A DNA stretch of 51,670 nucleotides, filler included, from Sphacelaria rigidula (lineage: Eukaryota), in assembly GCA_964200075.2 (NCBI GenBank). It is 4 parts of 4 records of this genome, joined end to end, with 100 filler letters (N's around TTAATTAATTAA, not from the genome) between each part and the next. Parts side by side here need not be neighbours in the genome. Positions count along the whole stretch, not along the records: positions 38,829 to 51,670 come from CAXNAA020003371.1; 3 more parts are not named here. The stretch is one strand, 5' to 3'. The position numbers were made by a program, and so were the translations under genes. Shown in pieces: positions 1,144 through 51,670 of the stretch. The notes under the pieces are model-generated. The model did no database searches and was not told the origin of the DNA. It worked only from the letters and a program-made list of their open reading frames with translations. Position 1 is the stretch's first letter. Every line of letters starts with the position of its first letter.

Positions 1144-4100
1144 CTGCCGATACATGCCACTGAAGCCGGTGTAGAAGGGCATGAGACGATCGTCCTCGTT
1201 GTCCTGATAGCATCCCAACTCTTCCCACCCGGTATCTGAGGTGCCACCCGGCAAAAAGAAACAGCACACCGCACTTCACGATGGGCATTTACTGGGAGAA
1301 AATAGCAGACGACATCGATCCGTACAGCATGATCCTGAATACCGCCAGCTTTAAAATTTCGAAGGATCCCAGTTTTGTGGGTCAACTTGATTATTTCTAT
1401 GCCTCCATGCTTCTAGATCTCGCGTTTGCAATGACGCGCAAGCTCAAGAGGGTCGATAGCCACGGGCTCTAGCGAGCTGCATGGAGCTTTCGCACTGACA
1501 TCCTCTTAGCTCGGATGCATGAACACTTACAAGACGCCGCTTCGGGACTGTTGGTCGGCGGGGGCAGGATATGTAGTGGCGACGGGGTGACAATCAATTC
1601 GTCCTGGACAACGACACCAGATCGGGGCAGGGGGGGGAGGGACGTAGGGATAGCAAGTGACGACGCAAGTGGAGTACGATTGTGATAAGGATGCATGTGC
1701 GCCCGCGCGCACTCGTTTGTTTGAGCCGTACGCGCCTCGTACGAAGGAAATAAATTCAGTCGCTTTGAACTGTTGCTGCAAGCAGAAACATCCATTCAAA
1801 TGCCCATGGTATTGACATAGCGCACAGATTCATGCCGTTGACAACGTTTCCACACAGATGGAAACCCACCACGAGTGTGTGAGGTCGTGTAACATACTCA
1901 TGGCTCCACATTTTCGTTCAACTACCCCCCTTCCTTCCCCCTCCCCACAATGTCGTAGGATCACCCTGACGATGAAACAAAAACACAAGATTGCATAGAA
2001 GAAACAAGAGCCTCTATCCATCACCCCACGAAGGGTAAAAGCCTACATTTGAACGTATAGTGTCTTGCCCCAAACAGGCCTGCATTTGACTTCTTGACAA
2101 ACACGAATTTGCTGTTGGATCCAGTTTGCAAAGGAAACTCTTGAGCCTAAGGAGAAGTTCAAGCAGCTTGTCTTCTCTGTGCGTATCACCCTTTAGTGCA
2201 ACTGATGGACGGCATTACTTGTTCTGTAAGAGCCGCTGGCGAGCGCAGATTTGCAATGGGCATGCAAACTTGCACTGCTTGTACCCTGGTTCCTTGAAAT
2301 GGCCTTACGGAAGTACTGCAGTGTGCTTTATTGCGGGTGATGATTCGTCACTATCGATTTCGAGAGCTTATATGAACAGCTGAACATATTTCCACCCCGA
2401 GACATACTGCACGTGCCAAATGTTTTTCACGCCGTAAGTCGAGTGAAACTCCACATGGGTGGTCACTGGGGTGCCTGCAACCTCAAACTTGAACGTTACA
2501 GACGTTGCACAAGGTCTGTAATGTCCAAATTTGAGGTTACACACATCCCAGTGGCCACCCATGCAGTGAACCAGTGCCACTAGCGTTTGCCAAGATTTCA
2601 TACCCTGGACAATAGAATAGACGGTCAGAAAATGCACTGCGTACAGTATGGGATCTATTGCCTATTGCAATAGACAATATATCCCATACTGTACGCAGTG
2701 CATTTTTTTACCGTTTATTCTATTGTTCAGGGTATGCAAGACTTCGCAACGGCGATGTCTCTCCTTTTACACCGTGAAACATCAGCTACTTGAGAGATCA
2801 TATTCACCCAAGAAGAAACTACACGGTACCTTCGCAAGTTACTTGCAATCAGCCGTAGCTAAGCGGAACACAACCACTATGTCAGGATCGTACCCGTCAA
2901 TTGTCAGAAGTACAAAGTTTTTCTTCAATTTTTTCGTCAAACTATCCAAGGATATACCGGTACACGCCTGCGGTTGCCCGAAACCACTGCACTCAACGCC
3001 TAACGAGAAAATTACCACGAGAGGCACGGACGTCCTGTACACGGCCAGCTGCCAGTCTCCACCGCACTGCTCAAGGGAGTTCCCGCCACAGGGACGCTCC
3101 TCACATGAGTCGTCGATCAGGTTCCCCGTGCGGGAGTATATGACCTCGCCGTGCCTGTCATATTCATCGCCACACCAGCACTGGAACCAGCACGGGCGAG
3201 AACCGAATAAACAGAACCAAATACGAACACAAATACTGGATGACAAGTTCCACGTCGTCACTCATTTCAAACAGTAGCGAGTCACCTGATCCCTTCATCG
3301 TCTACTTTTAACGGTTGAAAGCATTTCTGCGACTTGATCAACCTATGTGCTTTTTCTATCCACATAACACCGAAATGTCTGGGGCAACAGAACAAGAGGT
3401 GTTTGCTGGCATATCTGGCTTCAATGAACAACGAACAACGCGGTGTACACTGCCGCGAGTACATAGGGCGCCGCAGATGAGGGAGATACAAGGCCAAGAA
3501 CCGACCGAATACAAACGAAACTACGGAGGACGAATCAGTAGCGCTGCCTACACGAGTCACACGCAAAGGATTCAAATGTGCTGTTTTATACCTGTTGTAA
3601 GCATGTGCTCCTTTATTGTGGGATATGCCGGCGAGAGAAGCGGTAGAGCAATTTTCGAGACGCCGACTCCCTCCTTCTACACAAACACGGAGTTCCAACA
3701 CATGTGGCAAAGTCTGCACGGTATTCTGGTGTACATCGTACATACCTCTACGCCATATTCCAGGCCGTAGTACTCTGTCCCAGCTTCTTCGCAGCGTTCT
3801 TGACACATCTAGTCGCACGAAACAAGTAGGAGAGGGCAGGGGTGGAGCGCGGATTCCACGCTGGGAGTGCGTTCAGTGCAGGCAAAAGCACGCGTTTCGT
3901 CTTTAGAATATGTTTTGAATCGCCACGGTTCAACACACTCTTGAAATTCACCCCCGGTAAAGTGCTCTGTACTATTGTGCGTGTTACCCCCCAGACCTAA
4001 ATTCCCCCGTGATGTCCTGGGAGATGTCGAGGCGCCCTTAGAGGTTTCACTGAGACGCCGTGTCGAGATTTCAGGCCCTGCGGACGCGCTGACGGCACAG

Positions 4101-6187
4101 AAGGCAGTAGGGGCACAACCCCCACCATCGTCCTCGAAATATCCCTCCGGGGCCTATGTATCGAATTTTCCCAACGTCGCAGGGAGAGTTTAATCTCGTC
4201 GGGACGTCCCGATCATACCTCCTACCCGATATTTTGGGAGGCCCTTCCTGGAGTTGGAGATACCGTCGGAACGTTCCCCTATCTGATACGTAACCGTCAC
4301 GTGAATATATCTGTTTCTCAGGATGATAGGGGCACCCACCACCAAGCTATAACGCCTTGAGCGTCCAGCTTCTCATTTGCCTACACCTGCATCAGTTTTT
4401 ATGTTGAGGTGAAAGTCGATCCTACTTACTGTCCCACTTTTTTTCCGTCACCCGAGGATTTCATGTCACCGGTGGAACGGCTTGCGGCGGTGGAGTAGCA
4501 TCTACCGTGTGGTGCTGACATCTTCACCGAGAGTTGTACCCGAAGGTACAAAAGTAGTAACACCGTATGATACTTAGTGTCTCTCTTTTGTAGCAATTGC
4601 GCATAGTCATCTCATCGCGGTGAAAGTTATACTCGCAAGAATAGCTTGCTTCCGTATTCCTTGCCGCCCCATATCGGACTGGCAAACGGTTCCCTGGAGA
4701 AGCGTCAACTATGCGCGTATATACGGCATCGAGAAAGTATCCATGCATCCCATGCAGTTCCACAGGGTACGCTTTGGTAGAATACCGAGATACACGGCGG
4801 TCCGATGCACTCAAGGGGGAGCATTTGACAAAACTGAGATTGTTGCGTTCTCACCGCCCTGGTCAGGTCGACGGAAGTGTACTTGGGCGTAGCATCCATC
4901 GCGCGAGGCAAGGCATCGTTGAAACACCCCACTCGCGGGTTCACGCCTTCGAAGAGTTTCATCTCGTACACGTTCATCTTGTTGCGCCTGTACCAGCACA
5001 AGTCAACGATAGAGCAGCGAAACAATTGCGCCGTGAATGTCCCCTGAAGGGAGCAGAGACAACTGTATCTGTACCAGCAGGACGAAGTGTGCACAAGTGT
5101 TGACCGTTTCAACAGTTCCAAGTAAGGCGAAACGGCAGCGATAGCAACAACACTACCGATTGCATACTTCGATAGTTCAGCAGCTTTCCTTTGTCCGAGT
5201 AAAACAAGCTGCAAGCGAAGAGGTAGGTCATGTGCCCCGACCTATGGCAACCCGAGTTCACCATTCCACGCGGGAGCAGATCCTGTCCAACCGTGTGCGT
5301 GACCTCGCGGAAGGTCGAGTGGTATGCATCTCCATTAGGGTATGAGATAACGACGTGGACGAGTGAATGTTTCGTTCAACGCTCAAGACGCTACACGGAT
5401 AGCACCGAAAATATGCAATGCCGTTCTACAGAACAAGGACGATAAAAATCCGCACGAATACGTTGGAAGCAACCGACGCCAAGAGTCATCTGCCCGTGTT
5501 CTCTGTCGATTGAGTCGCTGATAATATCCCCGGTGGCGTTATACTTGCAGGGCGAAGAGGTGTAGCAACGCGTTTTGTTCAAAACATGAGCTAGTCGCCT
5601 ACATCCACAGCAATACTCCCTAGCTCATGTCAGAGAAGGCGGCGTCTTTGCTCTCATAATTCTCCCTTTGACCAAGTGATAATAATTATTCTGATTCGTT
5701 CTAGAGACGTATGAGGCGGTAGTAATAAAGATGGGCACCCCACACACCGTACTCTGAAAAATCCTCGCACCTTTGGTCAGATACGGCGCGTCATTACGTA
5801 CGAAATGTTGGGTGCTTGGAAGCTGTCGTGAACATTGTAGAATGGCTACTTCTACAATGTATTGGTGCGTCTGGGGCTTACATCCCTTGACACGTTGTTC
5901 TCACTCTTTTTACAAAAGAAAGTTCCCAGGTACATGGATTGCCAGCACTCTGTTTGTGCGTAGGGCAGAATCTATAGCCGCCGGGTTTGAGCAGGACAGA
6001 TCTCAAGCACCACTCCGTATCTGTACGCGGCACAGTAGTACAATAGTGCAGTAGTGCTGTATGGTGCAAAATGTTCTCACCCGCCACATGTCTGGGAAGG
6101 GGTGGCGCACTCCATGTCGCATTCATACGTCGCCAACTTGGAATCTTCGAAAGCCTCGTGCTCGTCGACGTCGACACCGCACCAGCA
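1144..6187 (-). CDS. Multi-WSC-domain (carbohydrate-binding) protein, partial; exons 6081-6187, 4855-4987, 3746-3808, 3016-3180, 1531-1603, 1144-1235
   Basis: All six exons have AG acceptors and GT donors with compatible phases. They splice to CWCGVDVDEHEAFEDSKLATYECDMECATPSQTCGG-RNKMNVYEMKLFEGVNPRVGCFNDALPRAMDATPKYTSVDLTRA-MCQERCEEAGTEYYGLEYGVE-CWCGDEYDRHG...SCEERPCGGNSLEQCGGDWQLAVYRTSVPLV-DELIVTPSPLHILPPPTNSPEAAS-YTGWEELGCYQDNEDDRLM. This matches the WSC pattern (GCFxD..R..T..C...C..yyGleyG.ECWCG..C..C.G...CGG...VY): one complete domain plus halves of two more. Start and stop codons not located. Confidence 0.9.
2454..2563. other. 110-nt imperfect fold-back hairpin in a WSC intron (pre-miRNA-like or MITE relic)
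   Basis: Left arm CATGGGTGGTCACTGGGGTGCCTGCAACCTCAAACTTGAACGTTACAGAC is complementary to right arm GTCTGTAATGTCCAAATTTGAGGTTACACACATCCCAGTGGCCACCCATG; most mismatches are transitions. Confidence 0.75.
2599..2736. mobile_element. Palindromic MITE-like element (CAYACCCTGGACAATA termini)
   Basis: Almost fully palindromic: CATACCCTGGACAATAG...CTATTGTTCAGGGTATG. Termini are related to those of 31155-31310. Confidence 0.75.
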
Positions 6188-7866
6188 CTGTCAACGTACC
6201 AAAACGTCCAGGCGAGACCACGGGCACAGAAGAATTGTTGCCTGGATGCAATATCATACTACAGCAGCGCTCGAAAACGCCTGAGGGTGGGGCGCTAGGC
6301 GATGGTGTTGGGAAACCGAATGGGATGATTTCATCGCGCGGTCAGAGATTTCGTGGCAGTACACGATCGCCCACGTAGCGTGGATCTGACGTGATAGGCT
6401 GCATTGGATGGAGGCGGCACAGGCGTCATTCACAACGACCGCGCGCTTCGCTTCTTCACTTATTCATATCCGCTTGATCCATACATCAACCATCAATTTA
6501 CGACACGAGCGCAGAACAGTAAAGGCCAACTCCAAATTTAACGCAGCGGGAATCTCAGATGCGAACACTCCCCCTAAATTATGTTCGTGTGCGATATCCC
6601 CACACCCTCACGAGGGTAGATGACACACACGTGAACCGAGCTACGGCGTTGAGCGCTATGTCAAATCGGGCGATCACCCGCGGTAGCGCGACAACGACAT
6701 TTTGCAACCATTTGGTAGTTCCCTTTGGGCGCAAACATATATATCTATCGCGCATTCGGTGCATTATCTGCATCACGTGGTGTCGGCGGGCGCTCGCGGG
6801 TTGAGAGTTGTGTGGACAATACTCGTGTGTTAGCTGGCACTTCTCGTCATATCAAACCTTTTCCCCGAAGTGTGACGATTCTCCTTTTCTGTTTTCTCTC
6901 AAGCATATAACTTGGTGTGGAACGGAGAAGTATACTACGTTTAAAACATTTTCAAGAAACACTTGCCGGGTACCCTTCTAAGTGCTGCATAACCGATTAT
7001 TCGGCGAAGATGTCACTCATCTCTTCTTCAGGCCATCTATTCCGTACCTTATGCGCGTACTGTCGGTCAGGAGGGTACAGATTCGTAGTATAGCATCGGA
7101 AGTATGACTTATGTCATTGTCCCACCATACCTTATGCGCTACGAATCCAGTCGTGGTCGCACGATAGACAGATACAAGGGACACGGAAGAAAACACCCCT
7201 GAGAGAGAGGTCGAGTACCCAACGTTCGCAAAGATTGGAGCGAAAATACAAATCCCGAGGAACGTACGAAGCGAAGCTGAAAGCAATGCTGGACTAAGAT
7301 CGATCGGCCCGGAGAACAAATGTCCACCAGGTGCCTGACAGACTCCCAGTCTTGGATTGTAAAGGAAGCCAAGCCATGGGGAACTAGGTTTTGGCTCGAT
7401 CAGATATTGGTAAACCGTATGGTCAAGAAGAAAATTTCAACCATGAAGATCTGGGCAAATAATATACAAATATCCGAAGGGGCACGCGGGAACAACCGGG
7501 GCGGGAGGGGCAGGGTGTAGACGCACATTTGGTTAACCTCAGTCGAGTTTGCTTCGGTCGAAAAAAAACAAAAGCTCGGTCTGAAAGAATGAACAAGCAT
7601 TGCAAGAGAATCATCTCGAAACAAATACTCCACGAGCAGTACCATACCTCATACAACACACAAGAAAAAATGTGGTTTATCCAAACATAAATATCAAGTG
7701 GAATCTCAAAGTTAAAATCAAGGTAAACTTCGTATGGTTAGCTTCTGCGGAGAACCCAAGCAGCGCCAGAACCACGTAACATTACTTCTTGAAATCCTCA
7801 ATCAGTTGCCTCCTTCGCGGTAACTGCCCCAATATCAACTGATGTTAATTTTCAAATAGATCCACC

Positions 7867-10169: not shown

Positions 10170-10980
10170 AAAGATGTACTGTCCGTATTGGATCACCTCA
10201 CAAGGTATGCATTGCTCATTCCGGCGCCAAAAAAAACAGACCACATCAATATAGCCAAAACGATAATTGCCAAAAGTCTCTACGGTATTTGGCATCCCGG
10301 GAAAGCTGCGTTCGAATTAAAGAGCGGGATTTTAGAACAAATTAACATACGCACTGCAACAAGAGTTAGGTTTCAATAAAACTCGCACGACACTGCCACG
10401 CCCGCAAGGTAATTCAGTGTCGGAACGAGCTCACTCCACTATCGCGTGATGTTAGCTATGCATATGTCGGTCGGGAACAAAAACTGGGCATCCATGCTTC
10501 CATTCGTCCAAATGGCGTACAACACTTCTTATAATAATACAGTACAATAAACACCGTGGTTTTTGTTGTTCGGAAGACAGTCCAGATGGCCAACTGACGT
10601 TATTTTCGGCATACCTGAAAAGAGCCAAGCGGCAAAACCCGAAGAATTTTCCAAAGAAACACGGGGAAACCTACAGTTTGGATTTGAAATCGCGAGACAA
10701 GCCCTACGAGAAGAGCCAACCCGCAAGAAAACAAGATGATTCAAATCTTTCACGGTGTTCAAGCAGTCAAAAGGTACTCTTGTACCCACCACACCAGGAC
10801 TCAAGAAGGTCGAGCCTGAAACTCCAATTTACATGGAGAGAACCTTTCATGGTAACCGAGAGACGATCGCCGGTTGCGTACGTGATCAAAATAGGCGACG
10901 ACTCTAGAGAAACGTCAGTACATCTCGCTCATATGAAGAAATATCAACCGCGAGAAACAGCGCCGGCACCGGACTTTGTC
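10170..10980 (+). pseudogene. Gypsy integrase core and GPY/F region, frameshifted
   Basis: VLDHLTRYALLIP...PQGNSVSERAHSTI...NWASMLPFVQMAYNTSYN..TPWFLLFGR and KLQFTWREPFMV..RSPVAYVI..VHLAHMKKY, spread over several frames with stops. Confidence 0.88.
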
Positions 10981-11543
10981 AAAGGGTTAGCTGAATGCTC
11001 ACATCCGGAGTCGAAACAAGAAAAATACCGGGTAACGGAAATGGATGTGACTGTTTAACAGACTGTTTGAGCGTGTTAGCAAAACGCTCAAAGGTTGAGC
11101 AGCAACCTGAGATCAAAATTCGGAGATTAATGAGACTCGAAAGCTACAACTCAACAGTTGACCTAAGCTATCGAGCTGACGAAACAACACAAAGTAGACA
11201 CCTCCTCGATATATACCGTCATGACAACGGGTTAGCAAAGCGCTCACATCCGGAGTCGTAATCCAAAAAATACCGGGTGACGGAAACGGATATGATTGTT
11301 CAACAGACTGTTCGAGCGCCCTAGCGAAGCGCTCAAGGGTTGAGCAGTAGCCTGGGGTCAAAATTCGGAGATCAAGGAGAGTCACAAGAGAAAAAAACAA
11401 AATGACGTTAGAACGATGCAGACATGAACGGAAAAATATCCGACATATCAACGGTGACTGGGGAAACTTCTCAAGGAAGATAACCTCTCAGCAATCGGGG
11501 TAGTGTTGATCATTTTGACGATGTTTAGAAAAAAAAAAAAAAT

Positions 11544-12843: not shown

Positions 12844-12943
12844 NNNNNNNNNNNNNNNNNNNNNNNNNNNNNNNNNNNNNNNNNNNNTTAATTAATTAAN
12901 NNNNNNNNNNNNNNNNNNNNNNNNNNNNNNNNNNNNNNNNNNN
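12844..12943. other. Artificial contig spacer
   Basis: N44-TTAATTAATTAA-N44, with stops in all six frames. Confidence 0.98.
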
Positions 12944-38728: not shown

Positions 38729-38828
38729 NNNNNNNNNNNNNNNNNNNNNNNNNNNNNNNNNNNNNNNNNNNNTTAATTAATTAANNNNNNNNNNNNNNNN
38801 NNNNNNNNNNNNNNNNNNNNNNNNNNNN
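38729..38828. other. Artificial contig spacer
   Basis: N44-TTAATTAATTAA-N44. Confidence 0.98.
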
Positions 38829-39523: not shown

Positions 39524-39987
39524 TGTTGGATATTATTCGCTGGCACGGCACTGTCTCACTGGACAGTTAAGCAGAGGCTTGCACTGTAGTGGTTAAGCTA
39601 CTTGCGAGGAGCCAGTGTAGTAAGATCAAGATAGTGTAGTTCGGCGCTTCTGGCCTGGAATATCAAACAGCCTCTTTTGTAAGAGAGAGCTGTGGAAGCA
39701 AAACTGGGTTGCTGGGGAGAGTGAGAAGCGAGGGGCGAGCGAGAGCGAGCCTCAATACTTTCCACTCTCTGGACGAAAACCAATGCTGTACCTAAACCAA
39801 AAATATCTTAAAATGTATCCTATATTACCGTGAAAAAGGTACAGTGAAACAACACATACGGGGTTTACAGTTCACCTGAACCGTAACAAATAACATTCAG
39901 TCGTGCCGCTTATGCAGTACAGTAACTTGGAGCGTCGATTTCAATCACACACAAAAAACCTGGACTGTCCTGTCTAAATTTGCAGCA
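39524..39987 (-). repeat. Copia 3' LTR
   Basis: Near-identical to 46187-46651; preceded on the minus strand by the PPT. Confidence 0.92.
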
Positions 39988-40162
39988 CTCCCCCGTGATT
40001 GACATGTCGCTATCAAAGAAAAGTAGTGTACCGCACACGCTATGTGTAGCAAGCGAATACTATCAGCCGAACTATGTTGTACTGACAGTACCCAAAGTCA
40101 ATCGTCGAGATACGCACTCGTACTGTTGTACAACTCACATCTATACTGTTAAAACGACTTAA

Positions 40163-40363
40163 CCCCTAGACCCCGAGATTAGTCTTTCTAGATCATGCAT
40201 ACTTTTTTTGCACTTGAAATTGATGCCTATTCAATAGAAGACTAACCTCGCTGTCTAGGGGTTAACCCTCAGACCGCGAGGCTAGTCTTCTGTTGAATCG
40301 GCATCAATTTCGAGTGAAAACAAATATACATGATCCAGAAAGACTAATTTCGCGGTCTAAGGG
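40163..40363. mobile_element. Two adjacent ~98-bp piggyBac-like MITEs (40163-40261, 40266-40363) in opposite orientation
   Basis: TTAA-CCC...GGG-TTAA-CCC...GGG-TCAA with ~24-bp TIRs CCCYTAGACCGCGAGRTTAGTCTT. Duplicated at 46827-47027. Confidence 0.85.
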
Positions 40364-40938
40364 TCAACCCTTGGACCAATTTAAGAAAATAAACTAGTCA
40401 CTGTTACAAATCTCCGCTCACATGCGCATGTATTTGCATGTGCATCAGATTTCCGTGAGCTCCAAAAAAAAAGTTAGCAACCAAAAACAATTGTGCGGTA
40501 ACATCAAACCGCGAATTGTTTTTATCCTGTGACGATGTAGCAATCAACGATAACTTACAAATGGCAAATATGTTTCCCCCTCTCTCTCCCCTCTAAAAAA
40601 GCACCCTTGCCAAAAGAAAGAAGAAAAAAGGACAAAGTAGGCAAGGACGGAAAGAACATCGCAAACCTAGAGGTCGTTGCGCGCATTGTTCCTACAGCGT
40701 GTTTTCTGGACCTTGTTTAATAAATGCAGGAGTTTGCACACTGTGGTTTTAGCATGCTCCTCTGGACCTTGAGACTGCACTCGAATAAAACAAAAGCAAT
40801 CAGAACAAATTCACCCAACGCAGGTAATTTTGCCGCGCTTTCTATATAATGTACGAGTATTACAGGCATCTTACACCTACTTGGGTTCTTTCACTCAATC
40901 ACATTTCTTAACAGAAAAATCGAACTAAGTCAAGTTCC

Positions 40939-41511
40939 TCAAACTCCGGTGACCGCGTTTGGGTCTCTGTAGTAAATGGTTGGTCGATTAGGACGAGAAA
41001 TCAACCGGATTCCATATAATAATCTGTCAGTCTGGGGGTCGTATATCCTCCTCAGCTCAAGAAAGTCGAATTCCAACGGGCGTTCGATGTGGCATGCCTT
41101 GACTAAAAAGTTGAAGATCCTAACATCAATAAAAATAAAGCAAGGCGTTGTGGAGGTACAACTGTGGTAGGCTCCTCAAAAATGGAGGATATTGGGGTAC
41201 TCTCGATCATCGGTGAACCCGTACGTCTTGAGTGTATCCGCCATCCTCGCTCGCTCCTCTGGTTGCTGCTCGGGAATAAGGATGTCCAGACAAATGGAAG
41301 CTCGGGCTCCCCAATCGATGTAAGGCATTACACGTCCTTGGACTTGTAGTGGTTGATTGTTTAGGCGTGCCCGTGCGTTGGGCGTCACCCCGTGTCTTGA
41401 TCTCTGGCGGTACGCGGTGCGCGGTGCACGACCATTAGTTGCAGAGTTTTGTGCGGATTGTCTGCGCGTGTTTCTCGTTCCGTTGTTGTGGGTGTTGATC
41501 CGGTAGCTCAT
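40939..41511 (-). CDS. Extra ORF of unknown function in the Copia 3' region, interrupted by one in-frame TGA (41176-41178)
   Basis: ATG at 41511; 111 codons, TGA, then 78 more open codons in the same frame (GAYHSCTSTTPCFIFIDVRIFNFLVKACHIERPLEFDFLELRRIYDPQTDRLLYGIRLISRPNRPTIYYRDPNAVTGV*). Confidence 0.5.
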
Positions 41512-41644
41512 ATTGTTGGAGAGTGGTGAAGGTTAGATTTTGAAAAATAGATGTTGGGGGTTGATGAATGATGTGGTGTGGTGCCCCTGGGATGGTCGAG
41601 ATGTCGCTTGGGTGATGACACTCGAACAAAATTAGAAGGTCGAA

Positions 41645-41768
41645 GATGAGCGTTGGAGATGATGGTAGTGGTTGAGCGTTGACGATGATGATCGAAGTTG
41701 AGCGTTGACGATGATGATCGAAGTTGAGCGTTGACGAAGATGATCGTGGTTGAGCATTGACGACGATG
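41645..41768. repeat. 26-bp tandem repeat (GTTGAGCGTTGACGATGATGATCGAA) x~5
   Basis: Lies just after the pol stop codon; duplicated at ~48309-48432. Confidence 0.9.
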
Positions 41769-41801
41769 CTAAAAATAGATGTCCTGCCGGATAAATATCC
41801 G

Positions 41802-44800
41802 TTATCTCCCGAATTCGGTTATGGCCTTCAGCAGTCTCTGATGTACGATTCTATCACAGCTTTTGGTGAGAAGATCCGCTAACTGTTCCGAAGATCGTAC
41901 ATAGTTTATTCTTAGTTGTCCGGCTCGAATCATATCTTTTAAACTCAAGAATCGTATCGCCAGGTGTTTCGAGCTGGTGCTGAAGTTGGCGTTTGAAGAC
42001 AGATGAAGTGCGTCTTGTGAATCCGAGTAGATAGTCGCGGGCTCACTAGATGACCATCCAAGCTCTCGTAACAGATTGAAGAGATACGTTCCGAATTCGC
42101 CGCATTTCGAAAAGGCACTCAACTCGGCTTCTGTCGTTATAGTGGCTGTTATACGTGGTAAGCTCGAAGTGAAACGAACTAGCCCGTCAGACAGAAAAAA
42201 TAACGTCCCCGTTGTTGATCGCATTTTCCCCTGAAGTCCGGCATTACCACAGGTTGTGGTTCTTCTGTCGTTGGGTCGAACGTCTCGAAGCCAGGCGCCT
42301 GTCTGCGGAATACTGTTACCCGTAGCTTGCCTTTCAAAAAAGCAGTTTGTACGTCTAGGGCTGAAATGGACCGATTTTTTCGCAGTAGCAATTGCCAGTA
42401 ACAATCGCTGGCTTTCCAACCTGCAAAATGGAGCGACCTGTTCAACTCCGACAGTGCCTATGTACTGACATACCATTTCCAATGTTGCTGCAGCATGCTG
42501 ACCCGCAGAAGACATGAAAGCTAGTCGCTTTAGCTCACTGGCTTGCCGTTTGTTAACGGGTCCAGGAGGATGATGATTGGGACCACCGGCTGAACGCAAC
42601 CTCCTTCGGGCGATAGGCGGCCCGGTAGTCGGTGAGTTATTCTCCGTGGTGCTGTCCTCTAGCTGAGCTATACCATCGTTAATATTGTTGTTGAAGTTGT
42701 TGATATCGTCGTGTTGTTCCTAATCAACTGCAGATACGTCGGGTTCCTGGATATCCAAAGCCGGAAAATCTTCATCGCTGCAAGGAGCTCCTGTTACTTG
42801 TTCGATGAAAGTGACGTTTCTGGAGCTGGATATTTTGCCCGAGTAGCGGTTGTAAATGCGGTACGATGGACTATCGGAATCATACCCTACTAGCACTCCT
42901 TCCCAAGGCTTTTCTTCTAAGTTACTGTGATGACGCTCCCTGTGCACAAACGCCCTCGAGCTGATTGTCCGCAAGGATGATAGCTTCGGTTGCTTGAGAA
43001 ACATTCAAAAATATGGTGTATCGCCGCCGATGCTCGTGTGCGGTAGGCGGTTGATTAAAAGGACCGCAGTTGCAGCAATTTCTCCCCAAAGAATTTTCGG
43101 CAAATTCGATTCGTTCAGGAGACAACGTATAACGTTCAAGATGCTCCGCCCGTCTCTTTCACTGATGCCATTCTGCTGAGGAGTATATGGACTGGTGAAC
43201 TCTTGACGGATGCCCGTAGTCTTGCAGTACTTCAAAAATAGTCCGCGATGTATTCACCCCCACGGTCTGACCGCAGACGGTGTACACGGAGTCCTAAAGG
43301 AATAGCCAAATCTTGGATGAACCTGCAGAGCGTAGTTAGGGTCTCATCCTTCGTTTTGATGAAGTAGACTACATTGAAGCGCGAGAAGTGATCCGTAAAC
43401 TTTGCCATGTTGCGGTAGCCGCCCTGCGCCATAGGCGTAATCGGCCCTGTTACGTCAGTGCTGAGCAATTGCAGTCGTTCCGAAATGTTTGTGGTGTCTA
43501 CGGTCTTTGGGTGGTCCTGCTGTACACTCTTATTAAGCTTGCACGTTACACAAGGTGACAGTGACCCCTCAAAGTTCACACCTGATTCAGGAATATTCAG
43601 TAGACGGCGCATGACCTGCTCCGTGGGATGTCCAAGTCGCCTATGCCAGATGTCTGCTCCTGTCGTGGTAGTCAAAGCTGTCGGTTCTGCTCCCGCTGTG
43701 GCAGACATGGCTGCTGAAGATCCCGGCATGTCGTGGTGAATGGCTTCTGCAACAATGGCTGACCCGATCCCCATAGATTCTCCTGAAATAATTGTAGCTG
43801 TAAATGCTGAGCTTTCATTAATATTACCTTGTTTCCGAGAAGCTCTCACGCTGATGTACTGTAACGCTCCGTTGCTGTCACTGTTGATTGGTACTTTAAA
43901 CTTTGCAAGGTCGACATGGGACTCGTGAAAAAATATAGTCGAAGCCCCCTTTGCAAGAGCTTGCACAGCGGAGAACAGATGCTTCCCCAAACCTGGGACA
44001 ATTACGGCTGGGAGCCGTACAGAACGTTGGTACCCCTCAGAGTCAATGACCACGGTGTTCAGAACTCCTTTTGCTGTACCATGTAGTAGATGGCGTCCCG
44101 CTGTTAAAATAGTCATCGGTGGATCGAGTTTGACCAGCTCGACCATTTCACGGTCGATATCGGGTGGCAACTCATCATCCAAAAAGTGTCCAGTGCTGCC
44201 GCTATCCACTGTCAACTGAAACGAAATTTGATCTGATGTATCAGTGACATGTGAACCAGAAAGAAAAGAAACTCCCATACCGTTTGGTGGTAAGGATGCA
44301 TCTATCACTGTTGCAGCTGTTGATGAAGAAGTTTCCAGGCCGTTGTTGTTCGATGGTACGGTTGTGGAAGCTGGGTCGGCGACGGCTGTGTTGGCGTGGC
44401 ATTGATGTCCGTTGGAGTTGTTGCTGCCGATGTTGCTGTTGTGGTTGCTTCTGCTGTTGTTGCTGCTGCTGTTGTCACTGCTGTTACTTCGATGGCGGGG
44501 GTTTCTACGATGATGATGGTTATTGTTGTTGTTTCTAGCGTTGATGGCTGCATTCCCGCGGTTTTGTTGAGATCTACACTCAGTATCGTCATGCTTGTCA
44601 GTGTGATGGAAACTGCACCATTATACAGGCCTGTTCCCATTTTCTGACTGCAGTTGGGAGCGACAGTCTCTGGCCTGATGTCCAGGTCTCCCGCAGGTGT
44701 AGCAATTTCCACGGAATTTCTGGGGTTGATTCAAAGATTTCGACAGTGATGTCACCAGCAGTGATGAATCGCGGCCATGCGATTTCCCGGAGGTATATCT

Positions 44801-45650
44801 ACGCGCCATGCGATTAGCAGCATACATATTTCGCATTGTTGTTTCGATGCTCTGAATACTGAGATCTGGATCACGCTCCGCATTGTATTTGATGAGGTCA
44901 TACTCACTTGTTAAACCTTCGATCACTATGTCAGTCAGCCTTTCTTAGGAAATGACCTCGCCAACGTTGTCCAGTTCGTCCCGAAGCTGATACACTTCGC
45001 TCAAGAAAGTATTAGGGTCTTGCCCTGGTGACATAGTGACGCTATTGAGTTCTCTCATCAAGATCCTGATTCTCTGCTTCGAAGAAGTTTGATACTTGGA
45101 AATCAAACCCTCCCATGCACGTTTGGCGTTTGGTTTCTCTGAACCCTTCGGCTGGAAACGCAACAAATAACTCACTGCAGGACCAGTTGTAGACAGATAC
45201 AAGACGTGGAACAATTGTTGACTGCATCGGTCCCAACTTTCTATCTCACGCGTGTTACAAACCCGTCTCACATGTGACACCACGCTTGGAAAACGAGATT
45301 CTCGTGAAATATGATCGTCTTCTTCGGCAGGCCGAGTCTCATCCACCGCTGCAATCGTCTCGTCCCCCGCGGTTGCCTCCGCCGATGAGAAGGGCGGTCG
45401 AACGGACGACTGCTGGCGGGTGGTTTGAGAACGAGTTCTAGCAGGGGTAGCTCTTGTGGCAGCAGGTTGTGGAAGATCTACCTAAGAAAACATTTCTTCT
45501 AATTCCGCGGGGTGTTTGACCCCGTAAGGATATCCGCAATCCCTGGACGAGTTAAAGAAATGATAGCGCGCGTGGAGTGCATCCACTCGACGAACTTTGT
45601 ACCGTCGAACTTGTTGATGCTCTTGATTGATGAGACACTTTCTACAATAG
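41802..45650 (-). pseudogene. Copia gag-pol, disrupted
   Basis: Gag (KFDGTKFVEW; RAWEGLISKY; CYTCGRPGHQARDC zinc knuckle), protease (LTVDSGSTGHF), pre-integrase (WHRRLGH..CVTC), integrase (STDVTGPI, LRSDRGGEY, PQQNGISER), RT fragment (ALDVQTAFLKG), RNase H (RSTTG, TEAEL, IYSDSQ, SKHLAIRF, QLADLLTK). Contains stops and frameshifts. Confidence 0.95.
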
Positions 45651-46059
45651 CCCCCCCCCAAAACCAGCTAAAAGTGTCACGAAAGAAATGGCCATAGAGC
45701 GCCTCATGTTCGGGTTTAGGCTGCATGAAACGCCTCATATTGGCGACATTAGCTAGAACGGACCCAAGCGTTGGAATTCCCAGCTTCTTGTTGTGCTCGG
45801 CGTTTCCCATTTCGATTTACGTGAAGATTTTGCCTCCCAGAACCATGCACATTTGGGGGAGGGGCTATCGTAGAAAGTGTCATGAGCTGAGTTGCAGATG
45901 TCTCTCCCGACATAATCATCTGCCTCACGTTACTAATAAAACTATTCTCTTCACCCCTGCAGATCTTTTCGAAAGATCAGGGTTCTTGGACTCTTGATTG
46001 TCGCTGCTGTGGCGACCTTGATATGACATCTCCTCGCTCGTGCTGACCGATGTAGTTTT

Positions 46060-46186
46060 GACGCGAAGGCTGATGACCTGAAGACCTAGGTGGTCGCGAA
46101 TCGAAGGCACCTGTTGGCCTGTGTGGTCGCGAACCGAGGCTGATAGCCTGTTGATCTATGTGGTCGCGAATCGAAGGCTCGAAACC
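46060..46186 (-). promoter_or_regulatory. PBS region with 3-4 reiterated LTR-end/PBS-like units
   Basis: Minus strand: CAACA|GGTTTCGAGCCTTCGATTCGCGACC...CAACAGGCTATCAGCCTCGGTTCGCGACC...CAACAGGTGCCTTCGATTCGCGACC...CAGGTCATCAGCCTTCGCG. Confidence 0.6.
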
Positions 46187-46651
46187 TGTTGGAAACTATT
46201 CGCTGGCACGGCACTGTCTCACTGGACAGTTAAGCAGAGGCTTGCACTGTAGCGGTAAAGCTACTTGCGAGGAGCCAGTGTAGTAAGATCAAGATAGTGT
46301 AGTTCGGCGCTTCTGGCCTGGAATATCAAACAGCCTCTTTTGCAAGAGAGAGCTGTGGAAGCAAAACTGGGTTGCTGGGGAGAGTGAGAAGCGAGGGGCG
46401 AGCGAGAGCGAGCCTCAATACTTTCCACTCTCTGGACGAAAACCAATGCTGTACCTAAACCAAAAATATCTTAAAATGTATCCTATATTACCGTGAAAAA
46501 GGTACAGTGAAACAACACATACGGGGTTTACAGTTTCACCTGAACCGTAACAAATAACATTCAGTCGTGCCGCTTATGCAGTACAGTAACTTGGAGCGTC
46601 GATTTCAATCACACACAAAAAACCTGGACTGTCCTGTCTAAATTTGCAGCA
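46187..46651 (-). repeat. Shared Copia LTR (5' LTR of copy 1 = 3' LTR of copy 2)
   Basis: PBS region on one side (<46187) and PPT on the other (46652-46658). Confidence 0.92.
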
Positions 46652-49600
46652 CTCCCCCGTGATTGACATGTCGCTATCAAAGAAAAGTAGTGTACCGCAC
46701 ACGCTATGTGTAGCAAGCGAATACTATCAGCCGAACTATGTTGTACTGACAGTACCCAAAGTCAATCGTCGAGATACGCACTCGTACTGTTGTACAACTC
46801 ACGTCTATACTGTTAAAACGACTTAACCCCTAGACCGCGAGATTAGTCTTTCTAGATCATGCATACTTTTTTTGCACTTGAAATTGATGCCGATTCAATA
46901 GAAGACTAACCTCGCGGTCTAGGGGTTAACCCTCAGACCGCGAGGCTAGTCTTCTGTTGAATCGGCATCAATTTCGAGTGAAAACAAATATACATGATCC
47001 AGAAAGACTAATTTCGCGGTCTAAGGGTCAACCCTTGGACCAATTTAAGAAAATAAACTAGTCACTGTTACAAATCTCCGCTCACATGCGCATGTATTTG
47101 CATGTGCATCAGATTTCCGTGAGCTCCAAAAAAAAAGTTAGCAACCAAAAACAATTGTGCGGTAACATCAAACCGCGAATTGTTTTTATCCTGTGACGAT
47201 GTAGCAATCAACGATAACTTACAAATGGCAAATATGTTTCCCCCTCTCTCTCCCCTCTAAAAAAGCACCCTTGCCAAAAGAAAGAAGAAAAAAGGACAAA
47301 GTAGGCAAGGACGGAAAGAACATCGCAAACCTAGAGGTCGTTGCGCGCATTGTTCCTACAGCGTGTTTTCTGGACCTTGTTTAATAAATGCAGGAGTTTG
47401 CACACTGTGGTTTTAGCATGCTCCTCTGGACCTTGAGACTGCACTCGAATAAAACAAAAGCAATCAGAACAAATTCACCCAACGCAGGTAATTTTGCCGC
47501 GCTTTCTATATAATGTACGAGTATTACAGGCATCTTACACCTACTTGGGTTCTTTCACTCAATCACATTTCTTAACAGAAAAATCGAACTAAGTCAAGTT
47601 CCTCAAACTCCGGTGACCGCGTTTGGGTCTCTGTAGTAAATGGTTGGTCGATTAGGACGAGAAATCAACCGGATTCCATATAATAATCTGTCAGTCTGGG
47701 GGTCGTATATCCTCCTCAGCTCAAGAAAGTCGAATTCCAACGGGCGTTCGATGTGGCATGCCTTGACTAAAAAGTTGAAGATCCTAACATCAATAAAAAT
47801 AAAGCAAGGCGTTGTGGAGGTACAACTGTGGTAGGCTCCTCAAAAATGGAGGATATTGGGGTACTCTCGATCATCGGTGAACCCGTACGTCTTGAGTGTA
47901 TCCGCCATCCTCGCTCGCTCCTCTGGTTGCTGCTCGGGAATAAGGATGTCCAGACAAATGGAAGCTCGGGCTCCCCAATCGATGTAAGGCATTACACGTC
48001 CTTGGACTTGTAGTGGTTGATTGTTTAGGCGTGCCCGTGCGTTGGGCGTCACCCCGTGTCTTGATCTCTGGCGGTACGCGGTGCGCGGTGCACGACCATT
48101 AGTTGCAGAGTTTTGTGCGGATTGTCTGCGCGTGTTTCTCGTTCCGTTGTTGTGGGTGTTGATCCGGTAGCTCATATTGTTGGAGAGTGGTGAAGGTTAG
48201 ATTTTGAAAAATAGATGTTGGGGGTTGATGAATGATGTGGTGTGGTGCCCCTGGGATGGTCGAGATGTCGCTTGGGTGATGACACTCGAACAAAATTAGA
48301 AGGTCGAAGATGAGCGTTGGAGATGATGGTAGTGGTTGAGCGTTGACGATGATGATCGAAGTTGAGCGTTGACGATGATGATCGAAGTTGAGCGTTGACG
48401 AAGATGATCGTGGTTGAGCATTGACGACGATGCTAAAAATAGATGTCCTGCCGGATAAATATCCGTTATCTCCCGAATTCGGTTATGGCCTTCAGCAGTC
48501 TCTGATGTACGATTCTATCACAGCTTTTGGTGAGAAGATCCGCTAACTGTTCCGAAGATCGTACATAGTTTATTCTTAGTTGTCCGGCTCGAATCATATC
48601 TTTTAAACTCAAGAATCGTATCGCCAGGTGTTTCGAGCTGGTGCTGAAGTTGGCGTTTGAAGACAGATGAAGTGCGTCTTGTGAATCCGAGTAGATAGTC
48701 GCGGGCTCACTAGATGACCATCCAAGCTCTCGTAACAGATTGAAGAGATACGTTCCGAATTCGCCGCATTTCGAAAAGGCACTCAACTCGGCTTCTGTCG
48801 TTATAGTGGCTGTTATACGTGGTAAGCTCGAAGTGAAACGAACTAGCCCGTCAGACAGAAAAAATAACGTCCCCGTTGTTGATCGCATTTTCCCCTGAAG
48901 TCCGGCATTACCACAGGTTGTGGTTCTTCTGTCGTTGGGTCGAACGTCTCGAAGCCAGGCGCCTGTCTGCGGAATACTGTTACCCGTAGCTTGCCTTTCA
49001 AAAAAGCAGTTTGTACGTCTAGGGCTGAAATGGACCGATTTTTTCGCAGTAGCAATTGCCAGTAACAATCGCTGGCTTTCCAACCTGCAAAATGGAGCGA
49101 CCTGTTCAACTCCGACAGTGCCTATGTACTGACATACCATTTCCAATGTTGCTGCAGCATGCTGACCCGCAGAAGACATGAAAGCTAGTCGCTTTAGCTC
49201 ACTGGCTTGCCGTTTGTTAACGGGTCCAGGAGGATGATGATTGGGACCACCGGCTGAACGCAACCTCCTTCGGGCGATAGGCGGCCCGGTAGTCGGTGAG
49301 TTATTCTCCGTGGTGCTGTCCTCTAGCTGAGCTATACCATCGTTAATATTGTTGTTGAAGTTGTTGATATCGTCGTGTTGTTCCTAATCAACTGCAGATA
49401 CGTCGGGTTCCTGGATATCCAAAGCCGGAAAATCTTCATCGCTGCAAGGAGCTCCTGTTACTTGTTCGATGAAAGTGACGTTTCTGGAGCTGGATATTTT
49501 GCCCGAGTAGCGGTTGTAAATGCGGTACGATGGACTATCGGAATCATACCCTACTAGCACTCCTTCCCAAGGCTTTTCTTCTAAGTTACTGTGATGACGC

Positions 49601-50200
49601 TCCCTGTGCACAAACGCCCTCGAGCTGATTGTCCGCAAGGATGATAGCTTCGGTTGCTTGAGAAACATTCAAAAATATGGTGTATCGCCGCCGATGCTCG
49701 TGTGCGGTAGGCGGTTGATTAAAAGGACCGCAGTTGCAGCAATTTCTCCCCAAAGAATTTTCGGCAAATTCGATTCGTTCAGGAGACAACGTATAACGTT
49801 CAAGATGCTCCGCCCGTCTCTTTCACTGATGCCATTCTGCTGAGGAGTATATGGACTGGTGAACTCTTGACGGATGCCCGTAGTCTTGCAGTACTTCAAA
49901 AATAGTCCGCGATGTATTCACCCCCACGGTCTGACCGCAGACGGTGTACACGGAGTCCTAAAGGAATAGCCAAATCTTGGATGAACCTGCAGAGCGTAGT
50001 TAGGGTCTCATCCTTCGTTTTGATGAAGTAGACTACCTTGAAACGCGTGAAGTGATCCGTAAATTTTGCCATGTAACGGTAGCCCCCCTGCGCCATGGGC
50101 GTGATCGGTCCTATTAGATCAGTGCTGACCAGTTGCAGTCGTTCCGAAATATTCGTGGAGTTCACAGGCTTTGGGTGGTCCTGCTGTACACTTTCGTTAA

Positions 50201-50400
50201 CCCGTAGACCGCGAGTTTAGTCTCCTGTTGAATCGGCATCAATTTCAAGTGAAAAACAATATGCATGATCCAGCAAGACTAACCTCGCGGTCTAGGGGTC
50301 AAGCCTTAGACCGCGAGGTTAGTCTTCTGTTGAATCGGCATCAATTTCAAGTGAAAAAATGTATGCATGTTCCAGAAAGACTAATCTCGTGGTCTAAGGG
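50201..50400. mobile_element. Two head-to-tail piggyBac-like MITEs (50201-50298, 50303-50400) inserted in the integrase region
   Basis: Flanked by TTAA (50197-50200) and TTAA (50401-50404); copy 1 has a single TTAA at 43533-43536. Confidence 0.92.
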
Positions 50401-50767
50401 TTAAGCTTGCACGTTACACAAGGTGACAGTGACCCCTCAAAGTTCACACCTGATTCAGGAGTATTCAGTAGACGGCGCATGATCTGCTCCGTGGGATGTC
50501 CAAGTCGCCTATGCCAAATGTTTGCTCCTGTCGTGGTAGACAAAGCTGTCGGGTCTGCTCCCGCTGCGGCAGACATGGCTGCCGAAACTCCCGGCATGCC
50601 GTGGTGAATGACTTCTACAACAACGGCTGTCCCGATGCCCATGGATTCTCCTCACATAATTGTAGCTGTGAATGCTGAGCTATTATTAACACTACCCGGT
50701 TTCCGAGAAACTCTCACGCTGATGTACTGTAACGCTTCGTTGCTGTCACTGTTAATTGGCACTTTAA

Positions 50768-50864
50768 CCCTTAGACCGCGAGGTTAGTCTTCTGTTGAAT
50801 CGGCATCAATTTCAAGTGAAAAAAGTATGCATGATCCGGAAAGACTAATCTCGCGGTCTAAGGG
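50768..50864. mobile_element. Single 97-bp piggyBac-like MITE
   Basis: TTAA-CCCTTAGACCGCGAGGTTAGTCTT...AAGACTAATCTCGCGGTCTAAGGG-TTGA; empty TTAA site at 43896-43899 in copy 1. Confidence 0.92.
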
Positions 50865-51670
50865 TTGAACTTTCCAAGGTCAATATGGGATTCGTGAGAA
50901 AATATAGTCGAAGCCCCTTCGCAAGAGCTTGCACAGGGGAGAATAGATGCTTCCCCAAACCTGGGACAATCACGGCTGGGAGCCGAACAGAACGTTGGTA
51001 CCCCTCAGAGTCAATGAAGACGGTGTTGAGAACTCCGTTCGCTGTACCGTGCAGTAGATGGCATCCCGCTGCTAAAACAGTCATCGGGGGATCAAGTTTG
51101 GCCACCTCGACCATTTCACGTTCGATATCAGGTAGCAACTGATCATCCAGAAAGTGTCCAGTGCTGCCGCTGTCCACTGTCAACTGCAAAGAAATTTGAT
51201 CGGATGTATCAGTGACATGTGAACCAGAAAGAAAAGAAAATCTCATACTCTTCGGTGGTGAAAATGAATCTGTCACTGTAGCAGCTGCTGATGAAGAAGT
51301 TTGGAAGCCGTTGTTGTTCGATGGTACGGTTCTAGAAGCTGGATCGGCGACGGGTGTGTTGGCTTGGCGTTAATGTCCGTCGGGGTTGTTGCTGCCGATG
51401 TTGCTGTTGTGGTTGCTCCTACTGTTGTTGTTGCTGCTGTTGTCGCGGTGGTTATTTCGATGGCGGAGGTTTCTACGACGATGATGGTTATTGTTGTTGT
51501 TTCCGGCGTTGTTGGTCGCATTCCCGCTGTTCTGTTGAGATCTACACTCAGAATTGTCATGCTTGTCAGTATGATGAAAGCTGCACCATTGTACAGGCCT
51601 GTACCCATGGTTTGACTGAATTTTAGAGCGACAGTCTCTGTCGTTATGTCATGAGGTTCTTGTCTTAGTA

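Follow-up and report, generated by a model that had tools for sequence, protein, structure and literature searches.

Evidence for a conserved, unnamed gene, broken in the copies examined, between pol and the 3′ long terminal repeat of a Copia element in the alga Sphacelaria rigidula

Long terminal repeat (LTR) retrotransposons of plants can carry additional open reading frames (ORFs) in the sense direction in the interval from pol to the 3′ LTR (aORF-3S), which are mostly described as Env-like in the excerpts of PMC7264820, where Sirevirus-type Copia elements, Athila and Bagy2 are named as carriers. LTR retrotransposons of bdelloid rotifers are reported in PMC5408684 to have captured additional ORFs, and for the Ectocarpus families Copia-1, -3, -6, -11, -12 and -13, which are 7–9 kb long, the curators' comments in PMC12477816 record an "internal tandem repeat" and an "internal stop" in some and name gag/pol ORFs only, with no extra ORF. 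In this report we focused on a decayed Copia element of Sphacelaria rigidula, labelled as an alga in the sequencing runs and taken as a brown alga in a reading from the sequence alone, and on an extra ORF between its pol and its 3′ LTR. Element and ORF both lie on the minus strand of a stretch of 51,670 nucleotides, made of four parts of assembly GCA_964200075.2 joined end to end; this whole stretch is called the window here, and all coordinates count along it. Our main finding is that the ORF is very probably a broken copy of a real, conserved protein-coding gene that belongs to a family without a name. No such ORF is described in the full-text search results or in the Copia rows of the Ectocarpus transposable-element library table, a statement that holds for those texts only.

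Comparison with these systems highlights similarities and differences. The algal ORF has the same place and orientation within its element as plant aORF-3S and likewise occurs in many copies per family; unlike the Env-like ORFs of plants, as far as the excerpts characterize them, it encodes a short, basic, soluble-looking protein with no membrane segment and no detectable relation to a described family. With the rotifer elements it shares the presence of ORFs beyond gag and pol that are common to element families, although the host group differs. The carrier resembles the long Ectocarpus Copia families, for which the comparison is with the curators' comments, in having 2–4 kb beyond a minimal Copia element and internal tandem repeats. 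A further parallel lies in the proteins themselves. Rev/Rex-type proteins of complex retroviruses are small, are encoded 3′ of pol, have an Arg-rich stretch beside a helical region and are produced from a subgenomic or spliced mRNA. The algal protein shares with them the small size, the place 3′ of pol, the Arg-rich stretch and the helical region, and it would likewise need such an mRNA; this is an analogy only, as there is no sequence or fold match.

The ORF starts at an ATG (41511-41509) and runs for 111 codons (41511-41179) to a TGA at 41178-41176, past which the frame stays open for 78 further codons and ends at another TGA (40941-40939). A reading of this DNA from the sequence alone had placed a sense-oriented ATG ORF exactly here, at 41511-40939, with a second copy at 48175-47603, and several parts of that description hold. 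The distance from the pol stop (41802-41804) to the putative polypurine tract (GGGGGAG, 39994-39988) is about 1.8 kb; a 26-bp tandem array of five copies precedes the ORF, between it and the pol stop (41640-41768, 5.0 copies by TRF; 41609-41794 by a second repeat search); and the N-terminal arm is indeed rich in Arg and Asn, with 20% R+K and no D/E among its first 55 residues and an isoelectric point (pI) of about 12. The sequence-only reading was wrong in stating that no homology could be recognised. The read-through peptide, with the stop written as X, matches the unannotated protein P0001 (228 aa) at an expect value (E) of 1.3e-39, with 47% identity and 97% query coverage, and P0002 (255 aa) at E 5.8e-35, and both alignments run unbroken over the position of the stop and include the start as well as the C-terminal end. 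The peptide and these two proteins end alike, in R-P-T-I-Y-Y-R-D-P-x-x-x-T-G/A-V/I, and an M-S-x-R start is common to the peptide, P0001, P0002 and P0004, in P0001 and P0002 behind spurious upstream extensions. That reading had also proposed that random stops or indels among family members would speak against a gene; homologues at 23–50% identity retain the reading frame together with its M-S-x-R start and its C-terminal end.

A profile search of 1.84 billion representatives extended this family to 44 proteins at E ≤ 1e-3; E ≤ 1e-10 is reached by 18, and lengths range from 41 to 279 aa, intact members having about 190–280 aa. A word-index search returned 14 proteins from ENA and Logan assemblies, all nameless, nine of which are new (P0046-P0054); some of these relatives represent clusters with several members (15, 17 and 6), and some lie on contigs of 575–784 kb. 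Unrelated tails, as expected after a frame shift, are found in P0004, P0021, P0022 and P0043. Many decayed copies, with several per assembly, form the pattern of a repeat-borne gene. Shared motifs follow a Y-I-D-W-G hairpin, namely P-G-Q-S/T, R-x-x-M-A-x-x-L-R-x-x-G-F-x-D-x-x-E-Y-P-T and S-L-P-x-L-Y, and further on D-x-R-I/V-F-N-F-L, F-D-F and the C-terminal Y-Y-R-D. None of this corresponds to a described family. The window pieces match no Pfam family, and none of 43 members has a Pfam match below E 0.03 (best E 0.038, each family being matched by a single member); a profile search of the PDB gave no match (best E 0.75, to PrgX); and comparison of the family profile with profiles of the gag piece and the protease–integrase piece of the same element showed no relation (probability 0.2% and 0.05%). 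In the ESM Atlas, P0001 had no usable match and residues 150–279 of P0024 gave unrelated rows only, at 0.90 or below. Pattern scans of IMG/VR (31 and 84 matches) and of JGI metagenomes (92 and 113 matches) yielded no confirmed family member, and a viral origin of the gene, which the sequence-only reading had offered as one option, finds no support in the IMG/VR scans or in a structural comparison with BFVD. None of 7999 candidates of 490–2000 aa scored as a longer or fused form, a negative that carries little weight according to the search tool itself.

A second result is the origin of the internal TGA, which is a by-product of two compensating one-base frame shifts that scramble about 15 codons. 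The N-terminal piece of the gene (41176-41511), with its ATG, Arg/Asn-rich arm, β-hairpin and first helices, and the C-terminal piece (40939-41175), with 78 codons and the final TGA, are joined by a third piece in another frame, which a hidden Markov model (HMM) search in the six frames of the window located at 41129-41206. This piece reads F-L-R-S-L-P-Q-L-Y-L-H-N-A-L-L-Y-F and carries the family motif S-L-P-x-L-Y, while the same stretch in the frame first proposed reads G-A-Y-H-S-C-T-S-T-T-P-C and has no match. On a profile built without the window sequences, the three pieces tile positions 23-88 (E 1.8e-17), 88-104 (E 0.033) and 103-164 (E 3e-15), the off-frame piece filling the exact gap between the other two and the alignment of the last ending where those of P0001 and P0005 end. 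Because the off-frame piece and its two flanks tile the family profile in this way, two compensating one-base frame shifts are indicated. The frame is lost at a T run at about 41176-41182 and regained at a T run at about 41128-41140, in both copies alike; these shifts may be real mutations or may stem from homopolymer errors in the assembly. The earlier description of a single TGA in an open frame is thus right in that the frame reopens for 78 codons, but the TGA is not a lone stop, since the family sequence runs off-frame from about 41182 to 41128. We reject read-through or recoding of the TGA and prefer the two frame shifts, with the SLPQLY-motif piece between them.

The predicted protein consists of a disordered basic arm followed by a compact helical domain. 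AlphaFold2 gave a mean predicted local distance difference test score (pLDDT) of 75 for the window reading (43 sequences), with blocks of 77–94 over residues 61–160, and blocks of 89–98 over residues ~111–210 for the intact homologue P0001 (48 sequences). The models show a domain of ~110 aa with six or seven helices, preceded in the window model by a β-hairpin, whereas the arm has a pLDDT below 50 and the first 40–100 residues are disordered. Across the family the arm is variable and rich in Arg, Gln and Asn; among the arms computed, those of P0002, P0008, P0014 and P0024 have a pI of 12.0, and the composition and pI of the arm are those of a basic Arg-rich stretch, Rev/Rex-like by analogy. 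In both models, the best structural rows from an aligner independent of Foldseek, all weak, are the N-terminal core-binding domains of tyrosine recombinases and their relatives: the Ndc10 DNA-binding domain (3sqi_A, residues 1–100; Z 5.9, root-mean-square deviation (rmsd) 3.2, 89 aligned), Phi3T SroF on DNA (9rd5_H; Z 5.2, 101 aligned), K. lactis Ndc10 D1 (Z 4.7) and Cre (1kbu_A; Z 4.5), with IntB, IntS, XerD and archaeal Xer also among the weak rows. A BEN domain on DNA is another weak match (8yzs_C; Z 4.6, rmsd 4.3, 94 aligned). The predicted algal domain is like the core-binding (SAM-like) domain of tyrosine recombinases, or domain 1 of Ndc10, in being a helical domain of about 100 residues, most of which these rows span. 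Unlike a tyrosine recombinase, the protein has no catalytic domain, none of 43 members matches Phage_int_SAM at E ≤ 1, the profile search finds no PDB recombinase at E ≤ 10, Foldseek is blank, and Z is far below a secure value. Pfam BEN is likewise matched by none of the 43 members. We regard these weak rows as a lead towards a predicted helical DNA-binding module, not as a classification. The combination of a basic disordered arm and a helical domain, as modelled, fits a nucleic-acid binder, and that the protein binds nucleic acid is a tentative suggestion to which we give somewhat less than even weight.

The carrier is a Copia element, as integrase precedes reverse transcriptase (RT) in its domain order: from 45481 to 42179, Pfam identifies Retrotran_gag_2, zf-CCHC, gag_pre-integrs, rve, SH3_retrovirus and RVT_2. 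The gag remnant (44621-45481, with Retrotran_gag_2 and zf-CCHC) is followed by a decayed pol (41802-44620) comprising a protease/gag_pre-integrase/rve region, SH3_retrovirus, a remnant of RVT_2 and an RNase H-like end. The RVT_2 remnant covers profile positions 73–106 of 244 in copy 1 and lies in a second frame, and the frames tested of copy 2 contain no RVT_2 match. With the catalytic core of RT deleted, four in-frame stops in gag-pol (44945-44947 and 44621-44623 in the gag remnant, 43005-43007 and 42720-42722) and at least one frame shift in the integrase (~43232-43253), the element is dead and non-autonomous, and the in-frame stops in gag-pol argue that its decay is genuine. Self-comparison of the window shows 39524-43528 repeated at 46187-50192 with 99.2% identity and 43533-44682 repeated at 50401-51650 with 88–92% identity. 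The repeat begins with TGTTGGA at 39524 and at 46187, where it adjoins the leader of the first copy, and the layout is LTR-int-LTR-int, in tandem, the middle LTR being common to both copies. Copy 1 has a putative 3′ LTR of 464 bp (39524-39987, TG..CA); the outer end of this LTR, with ..CA, is firm (39524 corresponds to 46187), and the inner end is placed by the short putative polypurine tract at 39988-39994, next to which stands TG. The LTR shared as 5′ LTR of copy 1 and 3′ LTR of copy 2 lies at 46187-46651, as the duplicated block and the sequence indicate; the far LTR of the array falls outside the window. The second copy of the gene (47603-48175) has an identical translation and the same two frame shifts. 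Presence in both copies, which the sequence-only reading had noted, is thus correct as an observation and gives no independent support: the copies show no difference over 40253-43372 and count as one observation.

Several side observations concern the history of this element. The two copies are 99–100% identical over their 3′ 3.8 kb and 88–92% identical in the 5′ part, from gag to integrase, with a sharp switch near 43373, where 22 differences fall within 130 nt; such a pattern points to two subfamilies that recombined or underwent gene conversion, or else to an artefact of the assembly. At the breakpoint of the RT deletion (42193-42260), the match ends at 42193 in several contigs of the DNA runs X1 and X2, and one X6 contig spans 42073-42366. 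The family seems to include RT-deleted as well as other forms, and the non-autonomous form with the deletion may have been amplified in its own right. A 37-bp tandem array of 3.5 copies (46067-46191) lies immediately inside the 5′ LTR, in the region of the primer-binding site, and its unit contains TGGTCGCGAA(T/C)CGAAGG at the place expected for that site. Contigs of other copies join 46148 directly to the LTR end and therefore have fewer 37-bp units. The array may be a repeated primer-binding site.

Copy number in this alga was gauged by mapping contigs of the two DNA runs (X1 and X2) and of two runs guessed to be RNA onto 39524-46186, at a likeness of at least 85%, with summed contig depth as a rough measure. 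Depth in the pol bins (41754-44652) is 3360–6649 (X2) and 1427–3949 (X1), which shows that the Copia family is highly repeated, and depth over the 3′ LTR (bins 39524-39969) exceeds that of the internal region. The bin within the C-terminal half of the ORF (40862-41084) has a depth of 2727 (X2) and 1335 (X1), which suggests that many family copies carry this half. In the runs guessed to be RNA, contigs cover the element thinly, and one 347-nt contig touches 41107-41322.

Taken together, the best explanation is in our judgement a broken copy of a conserved, unnamed gene that lies, in the sense direction, in the stretch from pol to the 3′ LTR of an abundant Copia family and encodes an accessory nucleic-acid-binding factor; we hold this explanation as a whole to be fairly probable, and on balance we also favor the view that the Copia lineage carries the gene as an integral accessory and not as a passenger. 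In terms of mechanism, the protein would be made from a subgenomic or spliced transcript, its basic arm would carry it to the nucleus and/or onto nucleic acid, and its helical domain would bind either nucleic acid of the element itself, RNA or DNA, or a factor of the host, such binding aiding expression, packaging or integration. About 75 nt upstream of the ATG at 41511, the sequence has an acceptor-like CAG|G, a candidate site for such splicing. A bolder version would see in it a regulator that binds nucleic acid in a sequence-specific manner and whose helical fold is new, with a distant likeness to recombinase core-binding or BEN domains. Such a regulator might recognise the 26-bp and 37-bp arrays and through them govern the export or packaging of RNA, or direct integration, which would be a targeting or Rev/Tat-like function of independent origin in an algal Copia lineage; this we consider a long shot. 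The proposal of an undescribed nucleic-acid-binding accessory protein, made from the sequence alone, accordingly survives in part: the coding frame is conserved, the protein has no Pfam or PDB family, and the basic arm and helical domain fit, but read-through of the TGA is not supported. For a silencing suppressor, which that reading gave as an example, the evidence points in neither direction.

Several observations weigh against this explanation. A single element family in a single window is the basis of the linkage to Copia, its two copies being identical over 3.1 kb, and in this window both copies of the gene are broken and their carrier is non-autonomous. A near-full profile span is seen in just four of the 44 representatives (P0001, P0008, P0014 and P0024), the rest being fragments. 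Of 2000 dinucleotide shuffles of the interval (1809 nt), 229 produced a sense ATG ORF of 111 aa or more, so that the length of the ORF by itself is not beyond chance. In the bins over the N-terminal half (41085-41530), depth is 597–712 (X2) and 286–330 (X1), about 5–11 fold (X2) and about 4–14 fold (X1) below the pol bins, and one contig form found in both DNA runs joins 40917 to 41689, skipping the ORF. It follows from the drop in depth and from this contig form that some copies lack the ORF or are very diverged there, and we read the depth data as a conserved half present in most copies, a fast-diverging basic arm and some deletion derivatives. As for binding to nucleic acid, none of the 43 members matches a Pfam DNA-binding family. 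The structure prediction and Foldseek search proposed in the sequence-only reading gave a confident helical domain and, at E ≤ 0.001, nothing in the PDB for both models or in BFVD for the first, with globin rows at an rmsd of ~8–11 Å, and all fold matches have a Z of 5.9 or less, under the noise level of Z 8 given in the aligner's own note, by which lower values are common among unrelated helical proteins.

Among the alternatives, the one that survives best, though we consider it unlikely, is a passenger gene, that is, a small host or foreign gene transduced by a Copia lineage and without a role in the life cycle of the element. Genes captured in sense orientation are known in LTR elements, as reported in the excerpts of PMC7264820 and PMC5408684; the ORF-less contig form and the lower depth of the N-terminal half would be in keeping with such an origin, as would a subgroup of relatives without the basic arm on long contigs (P0027, P0046 and P0051). 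What argues against it is that no longer or cellular-looking relative turned up, either among the 7999 long candidates or among the 44 representatives, none of which exceeds 279 aa, and that the relatives consist of multi-member clusters and many frame-shifted fragments (such as P0004, P0021 and P0022), which is the pattern of repeat-borne sequences. Somewhat less likely again is that the ORF comes from a separate small mobile element inserted into the 3′ untranslated region of a Copia ancestor. The interval already contains nested miniature inverted-repeat transposable elements (MITEs), and one contig form skips 40917-41689. However, the ends of that skip share 6 nt, as in a simple deletion, the ORF is in sense orientation, and no terminal inverted or direct repeats were found to flank the ORF block, where we detected just the 26-bp array and two 16-nt pairs, one direct and the other inverted and imperfect; there is therefore no sign of a nested insertion. 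An envelope-like protein of the Sirevirus type, which the sense position between pol and the 3′ LTR brings to mind and which sense ORFs at this place often encode in plants (PMC7264820, in excerpt), is very improbable: a hydrophobic segment of transmembrane strength is missing from nine of nine long members (maximum KD(19) 1.29), for which reason we consider the protein not Env-like, and further points against this reading are its length of 190–280 aa, the model, in which a disordered basic arm precedes a compact domain of helices, and the lack of a viral structural match in BFVD. The least tenable alternative, an open frame arising by chance in a long 3′ untranslated region, draws on the shuffling result and on the non-independence of the copies and is refuted by the E 1.3e-39 homologue, the 44-member family, the window-free profile that matches both halves and the confident predicted fold.

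The remaining features of the window concern other repeats and genes. About 209 bp of the 1.8-kb interval between pol and the polypurine tract consist of a pair of nested MITE-like units (40159-40367), each ~105 bp long with terminal inverted repeats of 28 bp, which are no part of the gene. The terminal inverted repeats of this unit start with TTAACCCC, and the inverted pair occurs in the pol-LTR interval of both copies, with extra insertions in the pol of copy 2 (50173-50405 and 50764-50866). Its summed depth of ~7.8e5 (X2), against about 4e3 for pol, is roughly 200 times that of the Copia element, and the unit is among the commonest repeats of the genome. An unrelated 248-bp MITE with 30-bp terminal inverted repeats is nested in the leader and gag start of copy 1 (45634-45881; depth 7–9.6e5), where an apparent gag-start ORF (45499-45816) crosses it. 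A pattern of 44 N, 12 bases and 44 N is identical at 12844-12943, 25787-25886 and 38729-38828, and three runs of 10 N, at 13805, 16405 and 17741, represent scaffold gaps or masked stretches. A weak match to a Tf2-type integrase SH3 domain on the plus strand (10456-11055; E 2.4e-4, below the cut-off) suggests a Gypsy-type remnant, and a thioredoxin-domain exon on the minus strand (22973-23590; E 3.4e-7) probably belongs to a host gene.

What, then, does the finding mean for these elements? To our knowledge, a function is known for almost no extra gene of an LTR retrotransposon, and among those of Copia elements, the ones described are for the most part Env-like. The extra genes of LTR retrotransposons are raw material for the envelope and regulatory genes of retroviruses. 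What is new here is that an LTR retrotransposon carries an additional ORF that is not Env-like and whose nameless family has no matched fold. The helical domain of the algal Copia protein, as modelled, would be a candidate for a new nucleic-acid-binding fold. For genome annotation, the family marks a set of repeat-borne sequences now called as orphan "hypothetical" genes. If the gene is a regular part of such elements, its product would add a new class to the accessory proteins of retrotransposons, and this in a lineage with little-studied transposon biology.

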